64,000 nt of DNA from a virus. Position 1 is the first letter of the stretch. The number at the start of each line of letters is the position of its first letter. The notes beneath the pieces were generated by a model. It saw nothing but the letters and a program-made list of their open reading frames with translations, did not search any database and was not told the DNA's origin. The translations under genes and the position numbers were made by a program. Location: positions 50,869 through 114,868 of the IMG/VR virus record IMGVR_UViG_3300021962_000041, one strand, 5' to 3'. This document shows, in pieces, positions 13,140 through 51,140 of the stretch.

Positions 13140-13198
13140 ATTATAAGGGGTCCCCAGTGCCCTGAGAACCCCCTGTGTGCCAGTTTAGAAAATGTCCT
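13140..13198 (-). promoter_or_regulatory. Cyanophage early promoter
   Basis: TATAAT 13140-13145; GTGCCAGTT-taga-AAATGTCCT 13177-13198. Confidence 0.8.
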
Positions 13199-13410
13199 CA
13201 ATCGTCGTAGATTTTACACTCTGCTGCATCAGGATGGGCGTCACAATACAACTCAAGTGGTGTGGGATCATGTAAATCTTCAGGATGATTTGCTTTATAT
13301 GTCTTAAGTGCTTCTAATTCTTCTTCTGTGTGTCTCCGTGCCTGTGGAGAAATTGTAGGGTCACTCAGAAGATCCTCATCCTTCTGAATGTGTTGGTCGA
13401 TGTTTTCCAT
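13198..13410 (-). CDS. cp12: CP12 Calvin-cycle inhibitor (auxiliary metabolic gene)
   Basis: C-terminal PLELYCDAHPDAAECKIYDD, central EEELE; late-promoter-like ATAAATA at about 13431-13437. Confidence 0.93.
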   Translation of the reverse strand: MENIDQHIQKDEDLLSDPTISPQARRHTEEELEALKTYKANHPEDLHDPTPLELYCDAHPDAAECKIYDD

Positions 13411-13440: not shown

Positions 13441-13647
13441 TCACTCACTCAAAGAATTACCACGCCAGTTCTTCGGTGGGGGAGGATCACATTTTCCTTC
13501 AAGGGAGCGAACCATTAATTCAGTAAACTTTTCCATTTTTTCTGCAGAAACTGTTTGTGGAGACCAAGTAATTGCTTGCTTGAGGGCAATAAGTTCGTTC
13601 CATTCTTCCTGAGTAAGATTTTCAGTACCAGTTTTTGCAAGAGTCAT
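13441..13647 (-). CDS. Hypothetical protein
   Basis: ORF with SD (AAGGA). Confidence 0.7.
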   Translation of the reverse strand: MTLAKTGTENLTQEEWNELIALKQAITWSPQTVSAEKMEKFTELMVRSLEGKCDPPPPKNWRGNSLSE

Positions 13648-13735: not shown

Positions 13736-14362
13736 TTAATAATGTAACTCTGCGACATATCTTTTAAGGTAATCAATCTTGACATCAACAGATAAAATGA
13801 TTCTTTCTTTTGTTCCACCATGAACAACAGAATGCTTAAGAGGTCCACCATCTTTGAATGCAAGAATCTTACCATCTTCCCAAGTTTTTGTTTGATCTCC
13901 AACTGTAATTCTACAACCAGGATCACATGAAATTCCAAGATGCATTCTCATATAGTTATCAGTCCATCCAGTATGGGGATTAATAACAGAACCAGGAACT
14001 AATCGACTAATAAAAGAATTATGGAGTACATCTAGTTCTTCTTCATACTTTCTGAGTATTCCAGTTGTTACTGGACATTTTTTTCTAGAGTTTTCAATAA
14101 TAACTTTTAAGAATGCCATCTCTTGCTCACTAGCATAAGATGACATAAATTCACCTTCAAACTTTGTTAAGGGCGCTGCTTTCCAGTAATGTTCATACAA
14201 ATTTCTACCATCAATTTGATATCGTGGATAATCAAATAATGATAATGGTGCCTCACAAAAGTTAAGAATTTCTTCTTTAATTACTGGATAGTTCTCAATC
14301 AGTTCATTATATACTGGAACATCTTCAAAATAAGATTCCCAAAATGCTATTTTCTTGCTCAT
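13736..14362 (-). CDS. Aspartyl/asparaginyl beta-hydroxylase (AspH/LpxO-like) 2OG-Fe(II) oxygenase
   Basis: SRLVPGSVINPHTG..MRMHLG..WEDGKILAFKD..KHSVVH...RIILSVD. Confidence 0.88.
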   Translation of the reverse strand: MSKKIAFWESYFEDVPVYNELIENYPVIKEEILNFCEAPLSLFDYPRYQIDGRNLYEHYWKAAPLTKFEGEFMSSYASEQEMAFLKVIIENSRKKCPVTTGILRKYEEELDVLHNSFISRLVPGSVINPHTGWTDNYMRMHLGISCDPGCRITVGDQTKTWEDGKILAFKDGGPLKHSVVHGGTKERIILSVDVKIDYLKRYVAELHY

Positions 14363-15027
14363 TTTAAATACTTCTCTAGGTAACTTAACTTAAGATCAAA
14401 GGACATAACATATCTATCTTTCTTTCCATTATGGACTACACTATGATAGTATGGACCGCCATCTTTAAATGCTAATATTTTACCATTTTTCCACGTTTTT
14501 GTCACGTTTCCTACAGTTATCTGGCATCCAGGATCTTCCACAAGACACAAATGCACTCTCATATAATCTTTAGAGTATCCTTGATGAGGTCTAATAATTG
14601 TACCAGGAGATACCATACTTAAGAACATATTGGCGAGTATTCCCTCTTTCTCTGGTTTTTTAATAATGTTATGAATTACAGGTGTAAGGATCCATCGATA
14701 TTGATCAATCAACATATCGAGATCCTTTCCACCCTGTAACTTCTTCACGATCATATTCACTTCGTGATGGTATGATTCGCTAAATCTAGAAAGAGCTAGA
14801 ACATCCCATGTATTATCATACATTTTCACCTTTTTACCACTCTCGGGGTCGGTAATCTTATACTTTGGATAAGGATTCATCCATTTATAAGAAGATCCAC
14901 CAACCTTTGGAAATAGTTTGGATTTGATAATGAGTTCCCACTTAATAAACCTCCAATACCGCATAAATGTGCGGCATATGGGTTCATCCATTAAATAATC
15001 TTCCCAAAACTCTGGTTCCTGTATCAT
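14359..15027 (-). CDS. AspH/LpxO-like 2OG-Fe(II) oxygenase
   Basis: SPGTIIRPHQG..MRVHL..WKNGKILAFKD..YHSVVH...RYVMSFD. Confidence 0.88.
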   Translation of the reverse strand: MIQEPEFWEDYLMDEPICRTFMRYWRFIKWELIIKSKLFPKVGGSSYKWMNPYPKYKITDPESGKKVKMYDNTWDVLALSRFSESYHHEVNMIVKKLQGGKDLDMLIDQYRWILTPVIHNIIKKPEKEGILANMFLSMVSPGTIIRPHQGYSKDYMRVHLCLVEDPGCQITVGNVTKTWKNGKILAFKDGGPYYHSVVHNGKKDRYVMSFDLKLSYLEKYLK

Positions 15028-15698
15028 TCGATATCAATATATTCTTTCAGATAATCTACGCTCAAGTCAAACGAAAGATAGAGTCGATCTTGATCCTTAC
15101 TCTCGTTCTTCATGCTGATAAAGTATGGACCTTGATCTCTGAATGCCAGAATATCTCCATCACTCCAGGTTCGAGTCTCATCACCAACATTGATTGTGGC
15201 AGCATCATCATCCCAGGCAAGTCCTAGATGCACTCGTACATACTCTTTTGTCCAACCTTTGTGGCGATTAACCACACAACCAGGATAAAGTGTTCCCAGG
15301 AAAGCATTTGCCAATTTCTTATCTCGTTCTGCTCTCCAGATCAGATTATGAAGCACAGGTAGACCACGCTTACGCAGTTTCCTGATGGTATCATCAAGAC
15401 TCAGATCCAGTTTCTTCTCTTGTTCTGCCTTAAATTCAAGGAACTCTGGACTTACAGACTTCTCCTCATCAACATAACCAACAGGAAGAGTTGTCCAGTT
15501 GCCAGTATATAATGGATTCTGATCTCCAGTATCAGGATCAACAACCAAAGGATTGAAATAAGGAAGCGACCAATGTGATGCCATTGCAGCAAAATGAGTC
15601 AGTTCAATATAAAGTTTATCAAAGTTCTCAATCAACGAAGCACAAATAGGTTCTTTCCCTTGCTTCAGTTTAAAATCCCAAAATGCAGGTTCTGTCAT
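15024..15698 (-). CDS. AspH/LpxO-like 2OG-Fe(II) oxygenase, distal His replaced
   Basis: YPGCVVNRHKG..VRVHLG..WSDGDILAFRD..FISMKN...RLYLSFD. Confidence 0.82.
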   Translation of the reverse strand: MTEPAFWDFKLKQGKEPICASLIENFDKLYIELTHFAAMASHWSLPYFNPLVVDPDTGDQNPLYTGNWTTLPVGYVDEEKSVSPEFLEFKAEQEKKLDLSLDDTIRKLRKRGLPVLHNLIWRAERDKKLANAFLGTLYPGCVVNRHKGWTKEYVRVHLGLAWDDDAATINVGDETRTWSDGDILAFRDQGPYFISMKNESKDQDRLYLSFDLSVDYLKEYIDIE

Positions 15699-15725
15699 AC
15701 TTAAATCTCCACTTGTAGTATTATA

Positions 15726-16916
15726 TCACACTTCGATGACTTGACTGATACACTTACCACCAAAGGCAAATGAGTTGTTGAGAGTCCGAAGTGTTCTGTT
15801 TGGTAGTTCTAGATTCTCCTTGACAAGACATTCTTTTCTGTCAAGTGAACATTTATTTAGATTCTGGATGTGAGGGATGACTCTGTTCTTCATCGACTCA
15901 ATCGCATAGATTGTTTCAAGAATACTAGCAGCACCGATTGTATGTCCAATCTTACTCTTTGGTGCATAGATTGGAGTCTTGTCAAGAACATCTGTGATTG
16001 CCATGTATTCAATTGGATCACCGATAAATGTAGAGGTTGCATGGCCCGACACAGCATCAATAATCATGGGCATGGGACTATGCATGTCAGCGTTCTTCAG
16101 CGCCTTTGTAATCGCTATCTTGGCGCCTCTGGCGTCAGGTGCTGGAGCAGTCATGTCCAGGGCGTCAGATGCCATTCCAGAGGGGTACAGGGTGGCGTGG
16201 ATGGTGCTACCATACTCCTTTGCCTTCTGACTGGATTGTAGGATCAGGCATCCAGCACCATCACCCATCATGAAACCTTCACGCTTGTCATCAAATGGGC
16301 AGTTATAGTTTCCAAGGGCACCAAGTGCCTGAAAATATAACATCAGTTCCACGTTCACATTATAGTCAGACGATCCAACCACAACATATTCATATTCATC
16401 ACACAGGCGTTGAGCATACTCCATGGTAAACAGTGAGGTTGCACATGATGCCAACATGGAAACAGATGCTCCCATGAATCCATAATGTCCACACAGGTGA
16501 GATGGAATCATATCAGGCAGAATGTTTACCAGTTTCCGCAGATTAATTCTCTTCCGATCATACAAATCATTTACAATCTTGTTACCTGCCTCATAGGAAT
16601 TAGAAGCAGATGAGAAGATCACTGCAACTTCCTGCTGTGGTTTCAGACCAGACATTTTAAGTGCCTGCTCTACAACATGGAATGCAAGAAGTTGTGATCT
16701 TGTGTAGGTTCGCATCAATTTGGGATCAAGATCTGGCAGTTGTAGAGTTTCATAGTCTACCATCAGACCCCTGGTAATCTTTTCACCCCGTTCAATCATG
16801 GGATGAAAGTCCACAGAATAATCTACATCATCTAAAAACCTTGGAAAACAATCGCTAGGATTGTTACCCAAGGCGTCAATCATTCCATAACCAACAACAT
16901 GGACTGGATTAACCAT
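15726..16916 (-). CDS. fabF: Beta-ketoacyl-[ACP] synthase (FabF/KAS-II-like)
   Basis: Cys-His-His triad: ASCATS, GHATST..GD..E, KSKIGHTIGAA; PFD..REGF.MGDGAG; NNSFAFGG. Confidence 0.9.
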   Translation of the reverse strand: MVNPVHVVGYGMIDALGNNPSDCFPRFLDDVDYSVDFHPMIERGEKITRGLMVDYETLQLPDLDPKLMRTYTRSQLLAFHVVEQALKMSGLKPQQEVAVIFSSASNSYEAGNKIVNDLYDRKRINLRKLVNILPDMIPSHLCGHYGFMGASVSMLASCATSLFTMEYAQRLCDEYEYVVVGSSDYNVNVELMLYFQALGALGNYNCPFDDKREGFMMGDGAGCLILQSSQKAKEYGSTIHATLYPSGMASDALDMTAPAPDARGAKIAITKALKNADMHSPMPMIIDAVSGHATSTFIGDPIEYMAITDVLDKTPIYAPKSKIGHTIGAASILETIYAIESMKNRVIPHIQNLNKCSLDRKECLVKENLELPNRTLRTLNNSFAFGGKCISQVIEV

Positions 16917-17152
16917 TACTCGTCATCTCCACGATTAAAAAATGTACCAAAGAAACCAGAATCACCTGGTTTTCGGTTTTCGAGTTTGTCAAGCAAGGAA
17001 TCTGTAGTCTGTAGAGATTCAATACGACTGATTAGATCAGCGATCACACTACAAACCATCGGACGCTCTTGACGTGCAGCATATGCTAGCGCATTTCGCA
17101 GAGATTGCTCTGCTTCCTTTAACGATTCTTCAACAGATTGTGATAGTGCCAT
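16916..17152 (-). CDS. Hypothetical protein
   Basis: ORF whose stop overlaps the fabF-like start. Confidence 0.7.
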   Translation of the reverse strand: MALSQSVEESLKEAEQSLRNALAYAARQERPMVCSVIADLISRIESLQTTDSLLDKLENRKPGDSGFFGTFFNRGDDE

Positions 17153-19317: not shown

Positions 19318-20346
19318 TCATAGGGTAATCCAGCGATTGTTTTCAAGAGTCCATTGAGTAACTTCTGCGATACGTTCTCTAACTGTTTTAGAAGGAACCC
19401 ATCCCAGTTGCTTCATTTTATCACCATCAAGGGCATAACGCAAGTCATGTCCAGGGCGAGAAGAATGGAAATCTACAAGATCATATTTCAGTTCTTTTCC
19501 TTGGGTTTCGGCAATGATTTGTGCAAGTTCCAAGTTATTGAGCTCTTCCGCTCCGACAATGTTAAACTTAGGACACTTAGCATTACCCCAAGTAGGTTCG
19601 AACTTACCCTCATAATTCAACAGAAATAGAACAGCAGATGCAACATCTTCGGCATGAATATAATGGCGAGAACCAGGAATCGTTCTGGTGGAATCACTAT
19701 GAATCGTCACATTTTCACCATCACGAATCCGTTTGATGCACATAGGAATGTACTTCTCGGGATGTTGACGTTCACCAAACACATTCATTGTGTGAGTAAT
19801 GTAAATGGGAAGACCATAAGTATTCTCATAAGCAACCGCAAGTTCTTCACCACCTGCCTTAGTTGCACTATAAGGATTGGTAGAATTATACCGATCATTC
19901 TCCTTATATTTGATTCCATTCGGAGCAGGACCAAAAACTTCATCAGTACCGAAGTAAATAAACCTTTCCAGATTATCCTTTTGAACTCTTGCAAACTCAA
20001 GGATATTACAGGTTGCAACAACATTATCCATGACAAATTCCATGGGATAAAGAATGCTACGATCTACATGAGACCCTGCAGCAAGATGAAGAATGTAATC
20101 TACATTACCAATTTCAGAACGAACCAAAGGGTTAAGTTCTGCCTTCAAATCATGGTGAACAATCTTTACACGTTTACGAACTTCAGGATCAAATGAAAGC
20201 ATCAAATCATGAAGACGATTTAGATTGCCACTGTAATCAAGACGATCAAGTGTAATCACTTCCCAATCAGTGGTCTTAAGAATTTGTCCAATTAGATGGT
20301 GTGCAATGAATCCTGCGCCGCCAGTAATAAGTGCTCTTTTAGTCAT
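19318..20346 (-). CDS. rfbB: dTDP-glucose 4,6-dehydratase (NAD-dependent epimerase/dehydratase)
   Basis: LITGGAGFI, HLAAGSHVDRSI, GTDEVFG, PYSATK, RPGHDLRYALD. Confidence 0.9.
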   Translation of the reverse strand: MTKRALITGGAGFIAHHLIGQILKTTDWEVITLDRLDYSGNLNRLHDLMLSFDPEVRKRVKIVHHDLKAELNPLVRSEIGNVDYILHLAAGSHVDRSILYPMEFVMDNVVATCNILEFARVQKDNLERFIYFGTDEVFGPAPNGIKYKENDRYNSTNPYSATKAGGEELAVAYENTYGLPIYITHTMNVFGERQHPEKYIPMCIKRIRDGENVTIHSDSTRTIPGSRHYIHAEDVASAVLFLLNYEGKFEPTWGNAKCPKFNIVGAEELNNLELAQIIAETQGKELKYDLVDFHSSRPGHDLRYALDGDKMKQLGWVPSKTVRERIAEVTQWTLENNRWITL

Positions 20347-26052: not shown

Positions 26053-26238
26053 CTATTTTAAATAATGATGTTTTTCAGAATCAAAGATTGTCCATTTTGC
26101 TATTTTAAGACACATTAGCACAGTTTGGTGTTCTCGCTGATACAAGTCCCAATCTTCTTTAAGTTTTGCAGCGTATCTTCTACGATAGGCACAAGTCCAT
26201 ACATTCTTGTAGATTTGTGCCTTTTCAGTTAAAGTCAT
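26053..26238 (-). CDS. Hypothetical protein
   Basis: Coupled ORF. Confidence 0.65.
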   Translation of the reverse strand: MTLTEKAQIYKNVWTCAYRRRYAAKLKEDWDLYQREHQTVLMCLKIAKWTIFDSEKHHYLK

Positions 26239-26945
26239 CCTAAACTTCTCAAAAAATCTTTGTCAATTTCCTGATCGAAACACAAGCAATATCTTGGTGT
26301 AGATAATTCATTCTCCACCTTATGACGAATTCTACCCCAGAAAAACATATGCTGATTATTTACAAATAATTTCTTCTCTGCTTTTTCTCTGTTGTTACCA
26401 AACATTAGATAACATTCTTTACCTTCTTCCTGACGAACATCAAGTCCCCAGAGACCACGAATAATTGCTAGATTATCACGTTCTGGATCTGGATCAAGAT
26501 GCCAACCAATACCTTTACCAGGACCAACCATACTAATACCAAATCTTCTCTTAATTCCAGCCTCTCTCATTGTTGATGTGAGAATAGGAAGCAATTCAGA
26601 ATTTTCTCTATGATATCCAATCTTTTCTTCTTTGACAAAAATTGGATCTCCAAAATTTTTACCAATAATTGTGGGTGCTATTTTAACAAATGCGTCCCAT
26701 TCATCATCAGTAATTAGTTTTGCACTAAAGGGATCTCTACACTCCATAAAGATGGGAGCAATTTGCCATCCTTGATACGCAATAGCAGTATGTCCAGAAT
26801 ATCCAGTATCATATCCCCAATTACACCAATAAATCTTGTCAAAATTATCAAGAAATTCTTTTTGAATCTCTTCAAATCTTTCTTCAACTAGTTTAAGTTT
26901 TGGATTTAACTCCTCAAGAGTAAAGAATCGATCTAGTTTGTTCAT
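26235..26945 (-). CDS. AspH-like 2OG-Fe(II) oxygenase
   Basis: GPGKGIGWHLD...RGLWGLD...RHKVEN...RYCLCFD. Confidence 0.8.
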   Translation of the reverse strand: MNKLDRFFTLEELNPKLKLVEERFEEIQKEFLDNFDKIYWCNWGYDTGYSGHTAIAYQGWQIAPIFMECRDPFSAKLITDDEWDAFVKIAPTIIGKNFGDPIFVKEEKIGYHRENSELLPILTSTMREAGIKRRFGISMVGPGKGIGWHLDPDPERDNLAIIRGLWGLDVRQEEGKECYLMFGNNREKAEKKLFVNNQHMFFWGRIRHKVENELSTPRYCLCFDQEIDKDFLRSLG

Positions 26946-27604
26946 AGCATACTTCTAAAAAATACATTTGGTTTATTATTAATGTGGGCAAGGCTTTTAG
27001 ATGCAAAAACATCCATTGCTATCACTGTTCTTGGTTGAGACATCATATTCTCAACACGATGAGTAGTATTTGAGTCAAAAGTATAAAACTTATTATTCCC
27101 AAACACTTGGGTTTCTACATTACCAGACTCATCCTTCATTTGAAAGATTGAACATTTATCTTTTTCTACAGGAACATCAATACCCCACAAAACACGATAA
27201 GTATTCAATCCACCACCACCATAATCCTTATCACAATGCCAATCTAATGAAGATCCTGGATGTAATACATTGATTCCTGCAACTAATACTGCTTTAATGG
27301 AAGAAAGTGTTTGACATAATATAGGAAGATACATTGCATTGCATGGATGAAAAACTCCATGATAACTCAATGCCCCCATATGCCACCCAACATCAGTATT
27401 AGTTTGTTTGGCATCCAAATAACTATTGAATTGAATTGGATAACCTCTCTTATTTTTTGTAATATAATCTTTTTGTTGATCTGTAAAATCTCTAATTTCT
27501 AAATTTTCTCTATTTGCAATAAACTCAGCGTGAATTGCATCAAAATTATCGGACAATACCTGCAACTCTGGTAGAATCTCTGTATAGTCTAAGAAAAGAG
27601 ACAT
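26942..27604 (-). CDS. AspH-like 2OG-Fe(II) oxygenase
   Basis: LHPGSSLDWHCD...FDSNTTHRVEN...RTVIAMD. Confidence 0.82.
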   Translation of the reverse strand: MSLFLDYTEILPELQVLSDNFDAIHAEFIANRENLEIRDFTDQQKDYITKNKRGYPIQFNSYLDAKQTNTDVGWHMGALSYHGVFHPCNAMYLPILCQTLSSIKAVLVAGINVLHPGSSLDWHCDKDYGGGGLNTYRVLWGIDVPVEKDKCSIFQMKDESGNVETQVFGNNKFYTFDSNTTHRVENMMSQPRTVIAMDVFASKSLAHINNKPNVFFRSML

Positions 27605-49301: not shown

Positions 49302-51140
49302 TTATACAAAAATCCCCAACATTTCTGGTACAATTTGCATATATGGATTTGCCATATTTACACTGGAGACACTTGGTTCTTCGGTTTCGACTCCACCTGC
49401 AGAACTATATTGTGGCACTCCAGACATTGGTAAAGTTTGTGATGGTAAGTTTATTGGTACTATTGATGATGTTGCACTTCTCTTAACTGGTTTTTTAATG
49501 TCAGAATGCAATACAAGTTCTGGAGAAACCATATTTGAACTCATTCTTCTCTCTGCATATCCACCATTTCCAATTTCTTTAGTTTTTTTAACCCTCTCTT
49601 CATTAACAAACTTATCTAATTGACCTTTAAATGTTGTTAGTTGAGATGCAAGAATTTGTAATGCACTCTTCATTGTTGAGTTTGATACTACCAGTCCCCC
49701 AACAGCATCAGAAAAAGTAGTCCACATTCTTCCAGCATTATTATTAATATCTTTCAAAAGTGGTCTGAACATCATTGCTGCTGATGCACGAATAACTTCT
49801 TCACCAGGAGCAAGCATCGCTGGAACACTATCAACACTTCCGGATCCAGTGCCACCAACAGTTCCACCTAATGATCTTTTAATTGGTGGTTTTTGGCTTT
49901 TTGCCTGTTTTACAATATCAATGATATTTTGAGCACTAGATGGTCTTGCAGATCCAGATCGTAATGCTGACAATTCTTCAGCAGAAATTGTTGTTTTATT
50001 TCCTTTTAAATTTGTAAATGTTCTAATACCAGAAGCTGCAGCGGGAGCTGGGACTGGTTTCGGTGCTCTCAATCCAAATTTTGCTAATCCAGAAGAAATT
50101 GTAGCAAGAATTCCACCTCCTATAGCACCAGTTGCAACTAATCCACCCAATAAAGGTAGAAGAACAAATGCTCCAAAATTTGTTACATCATCTGATGTTC
50201 GACCTTGATCCGTTGGTATTGGGTATATCTTTCCATCAGACCCACGATAAAAACGTTGTGGATCAAATTGACGAGTAGGTTGATCACCAGGTTTTGGTTG
50301 ATTGACTGGTGTTGGTCTAGGAATTAAACCAAATAGTGGAGAAAAAACTCTGGTTCTTTTTAAAGTTTCTGCAAGTTTTTCAGCAGCGGCACCGCCAATA
50401 TCTTTTATGCAATTTAAAACTGGACCACATCCCCCGCCAGCAGGTCCGCCTCCACTAGGTCCACCTCCCCCTCCTGGTTTTCCACCACCTGGTGGTTTTG
50501 GTGGTCTCTTAAATAAATCAACTATTCGTTTTAAAGCACTAACAATCTTTAAGAGTTTATATGCACCATAAAGAGCAAGTAACTCTTTCCAATGATTTGC
50601 AACAAATTTGAAGAATTTAGCAAGTTTTTGTTGATTTGCTGGATTTTCTAACCACTTGAACGCATTATTAACCAATAATCCAGTTACAATAATACTAAAG
50701 AAATCTAATATTTTTTGGAATATACTTTTTGCTGGAGTTGTTACAACATCAAAGGTTCTCATAATACCAGAACCAAATTGTCTTACAGACTCAATAGCTT
50801 TTTCTTTTGCTCCTGCCCTTTCTCTTGTTACTCTTATTTTGCTAGCTCGTAATGCCTGTCTCTTTTCAGTGATCCTATTTGCAAAATCAAGAGATAATTG
50901 TTTTTGAATTTCGATTAGAATTCTATTTGTTTCTTGTAAATTTACATCCAGACTCGTTGTTTCTGCCTTTAGACTAGATCCTACAGTACCACGTCTTTCG
51001 CCGCCAATAAAACTAAAAGTAGATCTTTTTAATCTTGGACTAGAAGCAATCTGAGCACCAGTCATTACCGAAGAAGATATGTTTCTTCTACTTAACTTTG
51101 GTAATGATGGTGCTCTGTAAATCTGGTTGTTAAATTCCAC
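49302..51140 (-). CDS. Tape-measure-like / baseplate hub protein
   Basis: Helical N-terminus, GGTVGG..DSVPAMLAPGEEVI motif; follows gp26-gp51. Confidence 0.7.
   Translation of the reverse strand: MEFNNQIYRAPSLPKLSRRNISSSVMTGAQIASSPRLKRSTFSFIGGERRGTVGSSLKAETTSLDVNLQETNRILIEIQKQLSLDFANRITEKRQALRASKIRVTRERAGAKEKAIESVRQFGSGIMRTFDVVTTPAKSIFQKILDFFSIIVTGLLVNNAFKWLENPANQQKLAKFFKFVANHWKELLALYGAYKLLKIVSALKRIVDLFKRPPKPPGGGKPGGGGGPSGGGPAGGGCGPVLNCIKDIGGAAAEKLAETLKRTRVFSPLFGLIPRPTPVNQPKPGDQPTRQFDPQRFYRGSDGKIYPIPTDQGRTSDDVTNFGAFVLLPLLGGLVATGAIGGGILATISSGLAKFGLRAPKPVPAPAAASGIRTFTNLKGNKTTISAEELSALRSGSARPSSAQNIIDIVKQAKSQKPPIKRSLGGTVGGTGSGSVDSVPAMLAPGEEVIRASAAMMFRPLLKDINNNAGRMWTTFSDAVGGLVVSNSTMKSALQILASQLTTFKGQLDKFVNEERVKKTKEIGNGGYAERRMSSNMVSPELVLHSDIKKPVKRSATSSIVPINLPSQTLPMSGVPQYSSAGGVETEEPSVSSVNMANPYMQIVPEMLGIFV

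Follow-up and report, generated by a model that had tools for sequence, protein, structure and literature searches.

Why should a cyanophage carry a gene for a condensing enzyme of fatty-acid synthesis, and why should that gene be followed at once by three tandem oxygenase genes? The question is raised by a 64,000-nucleotide stretch of viral DNA (hereafter the window; positions 50,869 to 114,868 of the 114.9-kb IMG/VR record IMGVR_UViG_3300021962_000041), in which a FabF-like beta-ketoacyl synthase (KAS) and three paralogues of the AspH family of Fe(II)/2-oxoglutarate (2OG) oxygenases (H1, H2 and H3) occupy positions 13736-16916 of the minus strand. The auxiliary metabolic genes (AMGs) of cyanophages serve photosynthesis and carbon, phosphate and nucleotide metabolism, and the clearest phage lipid genes are desaturases. 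The initial annotation of the block, made without database searches, described it as a dedicated module for making or modifying hydroxylated acyl chains. Our analysis suggests a looser arrangement. KAS is best read as an active FabF-like enzyme of a viral clade, predicted to work with the host acyl carrier protein (ACP) on fatty-acyl chains, with a re-tuning of fatty-acid synthesis in the host as the probable outcome. The AspH trio appears to be a facultative, co-transcribed accessory set; acyl chains or lipids are the foremost, though conjectural, candidates for its substrate, and proteins or peptides the main rival. If this is true, T4-like phages of aquatic habitats act on host fatty-acid synthesis where the chain is built and not just where it is tailored, and some of the many unexplained 2OG oxygenases of marine phages gain a first testable substrate hypothesis.

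The ketosynthase and its active site

KAS (15726-16916, minus strand, 396 aa) matches both ketosynthase domains of Pfam, PF00109 (E 1e-20, 74.9 bits) and PF02801 (E 8e-24, 84.3 bits), above the gathering cut-off of 20.8 bits, which assigns it to the beta-ketoacyl synthase superfamily. The highest-scoring NCBIfam model is that of FabF (TIGR03150), although its 181.6 bits remain below the equivalog cut-off of 493.75, and no PHROGs family matches the protein. Its closest solved structures are the FabF enzymes of T. thermophilus (1J3N) and E. coli (1KAS/2GFW), at 115-120 bits. KAS shares with these enzymes the predicted thiolase fold, the Cys-His-His triad, the catalytic Lys, the HxTxT motif (HATST in KAS, HGTST in 1j3n), GDxxE and the C-terminal FGFGG gating loop, but it differs from them in its low identity (~25-30%), in its placement in a separate, virus-dominated clade and in having neither an ACP nor further fab genes encoded with it.

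The active site is strikingly well conserved. C158, H292, H325 and K320 are invariant across 20 family members (53-84% identical to the window protein), as are the HATST, GDxxE and C-terminal NNSFxFGGK motifs together with F383 and F385, and the catalytic residues line up with those of T. thermophilus FabF. The intact triad that had been recognized by eye is thus borne out by alignment. Because the catalytic residues and motifs are invariant across the family, KAS can be classed, on sequence grounds, as an elongating, decarboxylating condensing enzyme of the active type. The polyketide synthase (PKS)-type model NF005490 reaches 106 of the required 445 bits and is outranked by the FabF models; neither a second ketosynthase nor an ACP was found in the record, and KAS does not qualify as a partner in a type II PKS pair of KS-alpha and chain-length factor (CLF).

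Which ACP would such an enzyme use? No ACP had been noticed in the window, and none was found in the whole 114.9-kb record (~53% complete according to CheckV), nor was a phosphopantetheinyl transferase (PPTase) or a malonyl transacylase; the search for acyltransferase genes, which the initial annotation had advised together with that for ACP and PPTase, also came back empty across the record, as did searches for a ketoreductase, a dehydratase and a thioesterase. Lacking a phage-encoded ACP, PPTase and malonyl transacylase, KAS likely works with the type II fatty-acid synthase (FAS) of the host, and host ACP is the natural candidate, as had been proposed. KAS would plug into this system and condense host malonyl-ACP with acyl-ACP, thereby sustaining or shifting elongation during infection. 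As a small, soluble protein that is readily assayed, KAS lends itself to a direct test of this question.

A virus-dominated sister clade of FabF

Among 5.8 billion proteins searched, 344 are related to KAS; the best 120 of these, 51-95% identical to it, are nearly all metagenomic and lie on contigs as long as 205 kb. In IMG/VR the family is encoded by at least 155 stretches, and by sequence it is almost wholly viral among the matches listed. In phylogenetic trees made without cyanobacterial FabF, a branch with an SH-aLRT support of 99 divides all viral copies and their stand-alone metagenomic relatives from eight cellular ketosynthases, four of them canonical FabF. KAS therefore appears to be part of a deep, virus-dominated sister clade of FabF; the comparison with FabF that had been called for yields a separate viral clade, for this set of cellular sequences. 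Recent capture of a host fabF is ruled out by score, by identity and, for these eight cellular ketosynthases, by the tree.

No match to the four-gene block was found by megablast among 50,697 phage records, a search in which near-identical records were possibly masked, and tblastn with KAS returned only matches of at most 34% identity, which resemble bacterial FabF or FabB in mislabelled records. Because the matches stop at 34% identity, none of the cultured phages compared appears to carry KAS. A 2023 review of 153 cyanophage genomes lists an ACP in two of them and no ketosynthase (PMC10452541). A fabF gene is nevertheless present in virome AMG lists (PMC10653327), and freshwater pelagimyophages of group PMP-D carry fabF plus a desaturase, described as peculiar to them (Zaragoza-Solas et al., 2020; PMC7029224). 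As far as can be compared by description, these genes are like that of the window in being fabF-like genes of T4-like aquatic phages; the reports are at annotation level, with neither a three-AspH cassette nor an analysis of a viral clade (PMC7029224; PMC10653327). The view that ketosynthases are unusual among phage AMGs has to be tempered accordingly. Phage fabF and phage AspH-type oxygenases are each already known from the literature, in which no functional study of a phage KAS/AspH cassette was found.

Viral-type KAS genes also occur in a few bacteria. Three Deinococcales metagenome-assembled genomes (MAGs; L125, L126 and L127) and one of Flavobacteriales (L128) encode copies 41-49% identical to the window KAS, which nest inside the viral clade and are present as a second ketosynthase alongside a canonical FabF. 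The canonical enzymes of these MAGs score 559-612 bits against TIGR03150 and the viral-type copies 218-250 bits, and the surroundings of the copy in L127 (HrcA, PASTA, NUDIX and a solute-binding protein) are plainly chromosomal. A probable virus-to-bacterium transfer of KAS into Deinococcales adds a further evolutionary point.

A tightly coupled block with three AspH-family oxygenases

The four open reading frames (ORFs) were recovered exactly as first described, with the same coordinates, the 396-aa KAS, the 27-bp gap, the ATGA coupling and cp12 nearby. The upstream gene, a conserved small phage gene of 78 aa (phrog_1179; 16916-17152, minus strand), is translationally coupled to KAS through a TAATG junction. 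A spacer of 27 nt (15699-15725, minus strand), which holds a GGAG ribosome-binding site 8 nt ahead of the H1 ATG, separates KAS from H1 (15024-15698, 224 aa), and ATGA overlaps join H1 to H2 (14359-15027, 222 aa) and H2 to H3 (13736-14362, 208 aa), all on the minus strand. No terminator-like site was found on this strand inside the KAS-H1-H2-H3 block; a promoter scan gave 27 matches versus 20.6 +/- 4.8 in shuffled sequences, which is no excess, and no promoter was assigned. The 78-aa gene, KAS and the three oxygenase genes would thus form one co-transcribed auxiliary cassette in an early or accessory region. The 78-aa product contains a DSL tripeptide and was considered as a cryptic ACP, a candidate that we rejected, there being no PF00550 signal in the record and the gene also flanking slots that lack KAS.

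All four genes are under strong purifying selection. Compared with a 91%-identical relative (L017), dN/dS is 0.048 for KAS, 0.062 for H1, 0.050 for H2 and 0.061 for H3, and values of ~0.05 mean that all of them are real, maintained genes. Translational coupling is also kept between the window and its 91%-identical relatives, despite saturated synonymous change (dS ~1).

The three downstream products score 51.6 (H1), 71.7 (H2) and 102.4 bits (H3) against PF05118, whose gathering threshold is 22.6 bits (E from 1e-13 to 3e-29, the latter for H3), and can be assigned by sequence to the AspH family. They would be soluble Fe(II)/2OG oxygenases, H2 and H3 with a complete metal site. Over 105 residues, H3 can be aligned with the oxygenase domain of human AspH (E 4e-14, 55 bits), and it retains the unusual metal site with two His (PHTG...H), the Arg that binds 2OG and counterparts of R688 and H690. 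H2 shows the same pattern, and equivalents of human AspH H679, H725 and R735 are all present in both H2, with its full His...His...Arg set, and H3. The roles given here to these residues are presumed to be those of their counterparts in AspH structures. H1 departs from this pattern: it keeps the first His, the residues equivalent to R688 and H690 and the 2OG Arg, but Ile occupies the position of the second iron-ligand His, as it does in all H1 orthologues. The recognition of three AspH-like dioxygenases thus stands at the level of the family, but only two of the three have the full metal site. H1 is constrained as strongly as the other three genes (0.062 vs 0.048-0.061), and its sequence suggests that it may be a non-catalytic or altered partner.

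Human AspH (5APA, 5JQY) is unlike the phage proteins, which are ~210-225 aa long, soluble and without a tetratricopeptide-repeat (TPR) or membrane domain. The lipid A and ornithine-lipid 2-hydroxylases LpxO and OlsC belong to the same Pfam family and provide a precedent for acyl-chain hydroxylation by AspH-type enzymes. LpxO is membrane-anchored; in contrast, no long hydrophobic stretch is apparent by eye in the phage proteins. The models of LpxO (NF033391) and OlsC (NF052565) give only 18-36 bits against cut-offs of 450-500, and membership of H1-H3 in either family is ruled out; the LpxO-like character first proposed for them is weak. Among phage proteins, the TlmH genes of P-HM1, P-HM2 and MED4-213 are AspH-family genes of T4-like cyanophages, ~28% identical to H3, but these phages have no ketosynthase. 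Two asparaginyl hydroxylases, an ACP and a holo-ACP synthase (ACPS) have been reported as unique to P-HM1 and P-HM2, and it has been proposed that consumption of 2OG manipulates host nitrogen-status signalling (Sullivan et al., 2010; PMC3037559). The TlmH gene of P-HM1 is not adjacent to ACP or ACPS, by which its membership in an ACP locus is ruled out.

Lipid enzymes and oxygenases around the ketosynthase family

Relatives of KAS are often found close to desaturases and oxygenases. Desaturases are encoded in 16 of 41 KAS-bearing records, most of which are fragments: 14 carry membrane fatty-acid desaturases (PF00487), mostly 1-8 kb from KAS, and in two an acyl-ACP desaturase is translationally coupled to KAS, an ACP lying upstream. 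In two records (G002 and G009) a same-strand array combines an ACP, several PF13640 oxygenases, KAS, a soluble acyl-ACP desaturase (PF03405, E 2.5e-52 in G002), whose start overlaps the end of KAS, and a PhyH-family dioxygenase; G002 adds a cytochrome P450 and two AspH-like genes, and its ACP has the canonical DSL motif. The most explicit lipid-type context of the KAS family is the array of this make-up at locus L012 (contig IMGVR_UViG_3300042860_004240, 513-10801, one strand), with four PF13640 oxygenases, a P450 and two AspH-like genes, and at its sister locus L022. Only 3 of the 40 related records encode an ACP, and the three complete genomes encode none. At locus L109 (G024:C1:72826-72987), a phosphopantetheine (PP)-binding domain lies inside a 331-aa ORF, ~34 kb from the KAS of that record.

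Oxygenases are recurrent neighbours too. When KAS sequences are clustered at 90% identity into lineages (n=38), a 2OG-oxygenase gene directly adjoins KAS in 16 of them, and at the loci with a single oxygenase that gene is the direct neighbour in all five lineages concerned. The adjoining genes come from four families, namely the AspH-type family c4, c2, the PF13640-type family c36 and c182. The families c1 and c2 have no Pfam match, and both show HxD...H...R motifs; confident models of c1 (TM 0.55/0.63 to AspH 5apa) and of c2 (Z 9.0 to proline 3-hydroxylase, 8.2 to AspH) predict 2OG-oxygenase folds for the two. When the sequence profile of the AspH cluster was compared with families c1, c2, c36 and c37, no significant match emerged. 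The complete 145-kb genome G005 has 11 oxygenase-like genes, and 8 of them are found less than 6 kb from KAS.

A different arrangement is found in many freshwater-type phages, in which KAS is followed by a gene similar to that of S-adenosylmethionine decarboxylase (AdoMetDC), a gene for a 161-aa protein, an amidinotransferase gene (PDB 1bwd, 5wpi, E ~1e-22) and then three to five tandem oxygenases of AspH fold (L031:7639-9209; G005, ~87.7-93.4 kb). The amidinotransferase block and its oxygenases are probably a separate guanidino or polyamine tailoring module, and the c1 oxygenase arrays, which follow this apparently separate block, were set aside as partners of KAS.

Joint cassette or independent passengers?

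We give an even chance to a joint reading of the locus, suggested by its sequence, as a co-transcribed auxiliary cassette in which KAS acts on host fatty-acid synthesis and the AspH genes hydroxylate acyl chains or lipids. The last of these steps, in which the AspH products, when present, would act on acyl chains or lipids whose supply is affected by KAS, is the weakest. The alternative that has to be taken most seriously, a real possibility although we would not bet on it, is that each gene is a passenger in its own right at a single insertion hot-spot: KAS alone would act on the host FAS, the AspH paralogues would do unrelated work, such as 2OG consumption or, in the manner of AspH and CinX, Asp/Asn beta-hydroxylation of proteins or peptides from phage or host, and their adjacency would reflect a hypervariable slot between the 78-aa gene and cp12. 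Several observations favour such a hot-spot or weigh against the joint reading. When 81 loci around KAS homologues were compared, 72 had no AspH gene within 7 kb, and the nine in which AspH genes flank KAS all belong to one 21-row cyanophage clade of the KAS tree. These nine vary in copy number, from three (the window type and L017) to two (L006, L020) and one (L021), H2 being the copy type kept in single-hydroxylase relatives, and in L085 two AspH genes stand on the opposite side of KAS. The slot itself, bounded by the 78-aa gene, which adjoins it in loci with and without KAS, and by a conserved 68-aa gene (phrog_14124; 13441-13647, minus strand) plus cp12, is also found with KAS alone (L010, L013) or with a hydroxylase alone (L102, L104). 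Hydroxylases without KAS recur in unrelated contexts (L097-L101) and in the KAS-less phages P-HM1, P-HM2 and MED4-213; cyanomyoviruses encode 1-24 2OG oxygenases per genome (PMC3037559; PMC9602691), and AspH has been reported as a core gene of pelagimyophages (PMC7029224). The window holds two further tandem PF05118 paralogues (26235-26945, 236 aa, and 26942-27604, 220 aa; minus strand), ~10 kb from KAS and unlinked to it, and the 114.9-kb record holds neither a desaturase nor an ACP. No c4 AspH-type gene adjoins KAS in the three complete KAS-bearing genomes. Finally, the hydroxylases are closer to the protein hydroxylase AspH, with conserved equivalents of R688, H690 and R735, than to LpxO or OlsC (55 vs 18-36 bits). 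Because oxygenases are so numerous in these phages, a shared insertion hot-spot may account for part of the KAS-oxygenase adjacency.

An obligate module of KAS and AspH is refuted by this comparison, because either gene type can be kept without the other, and the AspH genes are better described, from their sequences and distribution, as a mobile, multi-copy phage family joined facultatively to KAS. The dedicated module that was first proposed survives in part, in the tight coupling, the conservation and the proximity of the KAS family to lipid enzymes; the co-occurrence expected from it is found as linkage in nine loci, next to KAS-only and AspH-only variants of the same slot. A mere hot-spot does not readily explain, however, why KAS has been independently juxtaposed with four oxygenase families, on either side, why translational coupling has outlasted saturated synonymous change, or why the AspH genes of G002 sit within the array of ACP, desaturase and PhyH. 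In the window type the AspH genes are found downstream of KAS, in G002 upstream of it, and these two are independent KAS-AspH juxtapositions. That the cassette yields a specialized small metabolite seems improbable to us; in such a minimal pathway, of polyketide-like or hydroxy-acid type, a stand-alone condensing ketosynthase would use a starter other than a fatty acid, and the oxygenases would then tailor the product oxidatively. The distance of KAS from housekeeping FabF (182 bits vs 494), with PKS ketosynthase domains at a similar distance, would suit it, as would the P450, PhyH and many oxygenase genes that neighbour KAS in related phages and the amidinotransferase module of other lineages, but that block travels separately, FabF models outscore every PKS model, the recurrent partners of KAS are desaturases of the fatty-acid type, and the record lacks the acyltransferase, ketoreductase, dehydratase, thioesterase and PPTase of such a pathway, just as the complete genomes lack an ACP. 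KAS might also have no catalytic role and serve as a decoy or inhibitor that ties up the ACP or FAS partners of the host, with the hydroxylases irrelevant to it, as its strong divergence from FabF and the lack of encoded partner enzymes could suggest; we consider this very improbable, because the invariant Cys, two His, Lys, Thr pair and FGFGG gating loop fit an active enzyme and not a binder.

The joint reading of KAS and the AspH genes can be taken one step further, into a picture that we regard as rather doubtful. The viral FabF-like clade and its changing sets of oxygenases and desaturases could represent a phage toolkit for making non-native acyl chains on host ACP in the course of infection, be they hydroxylated, desaturated or shifted in chain length. 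KAS together with H1, H2 and H3, with H1 as a non-catalytic subunit, would then provide hydroxy-fatty acyl groups that remodel the thylakoid or outer-membrane lipids of the host or its lipopolysaccharide (LPS), which might, for instance, keep photosynthetic membranes working or shut out superinfecting phages.

Source and neighbouring genes

The record appears to derive from an uncultured T4-like Synechococcus cyanomyovirus, because its UvsW-type helicase shares 75% identity with the counterpart in Synechococcus phage S-SKS1, the nearest isolate. A marker of the cyanophage context stands close to the cassette: cp12 (13198-13410, minus strand; PF02672, E 5e-13), the AMG for a Calvin-cycle regulator, lies 330 nt downstream of H3. 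On the other side, 2.4 kb upstream of the cassette, the minus strand encodes an NAD-dependent nucleotide-sugar epimerase/dehydratase (19318-20346; PF16363 and PF01370; phrog_540), which is kept near KAS in related contigs, at 95-98% in the five closest viral loci, 90% in L104 and ~42% in L009, L011 and L012.

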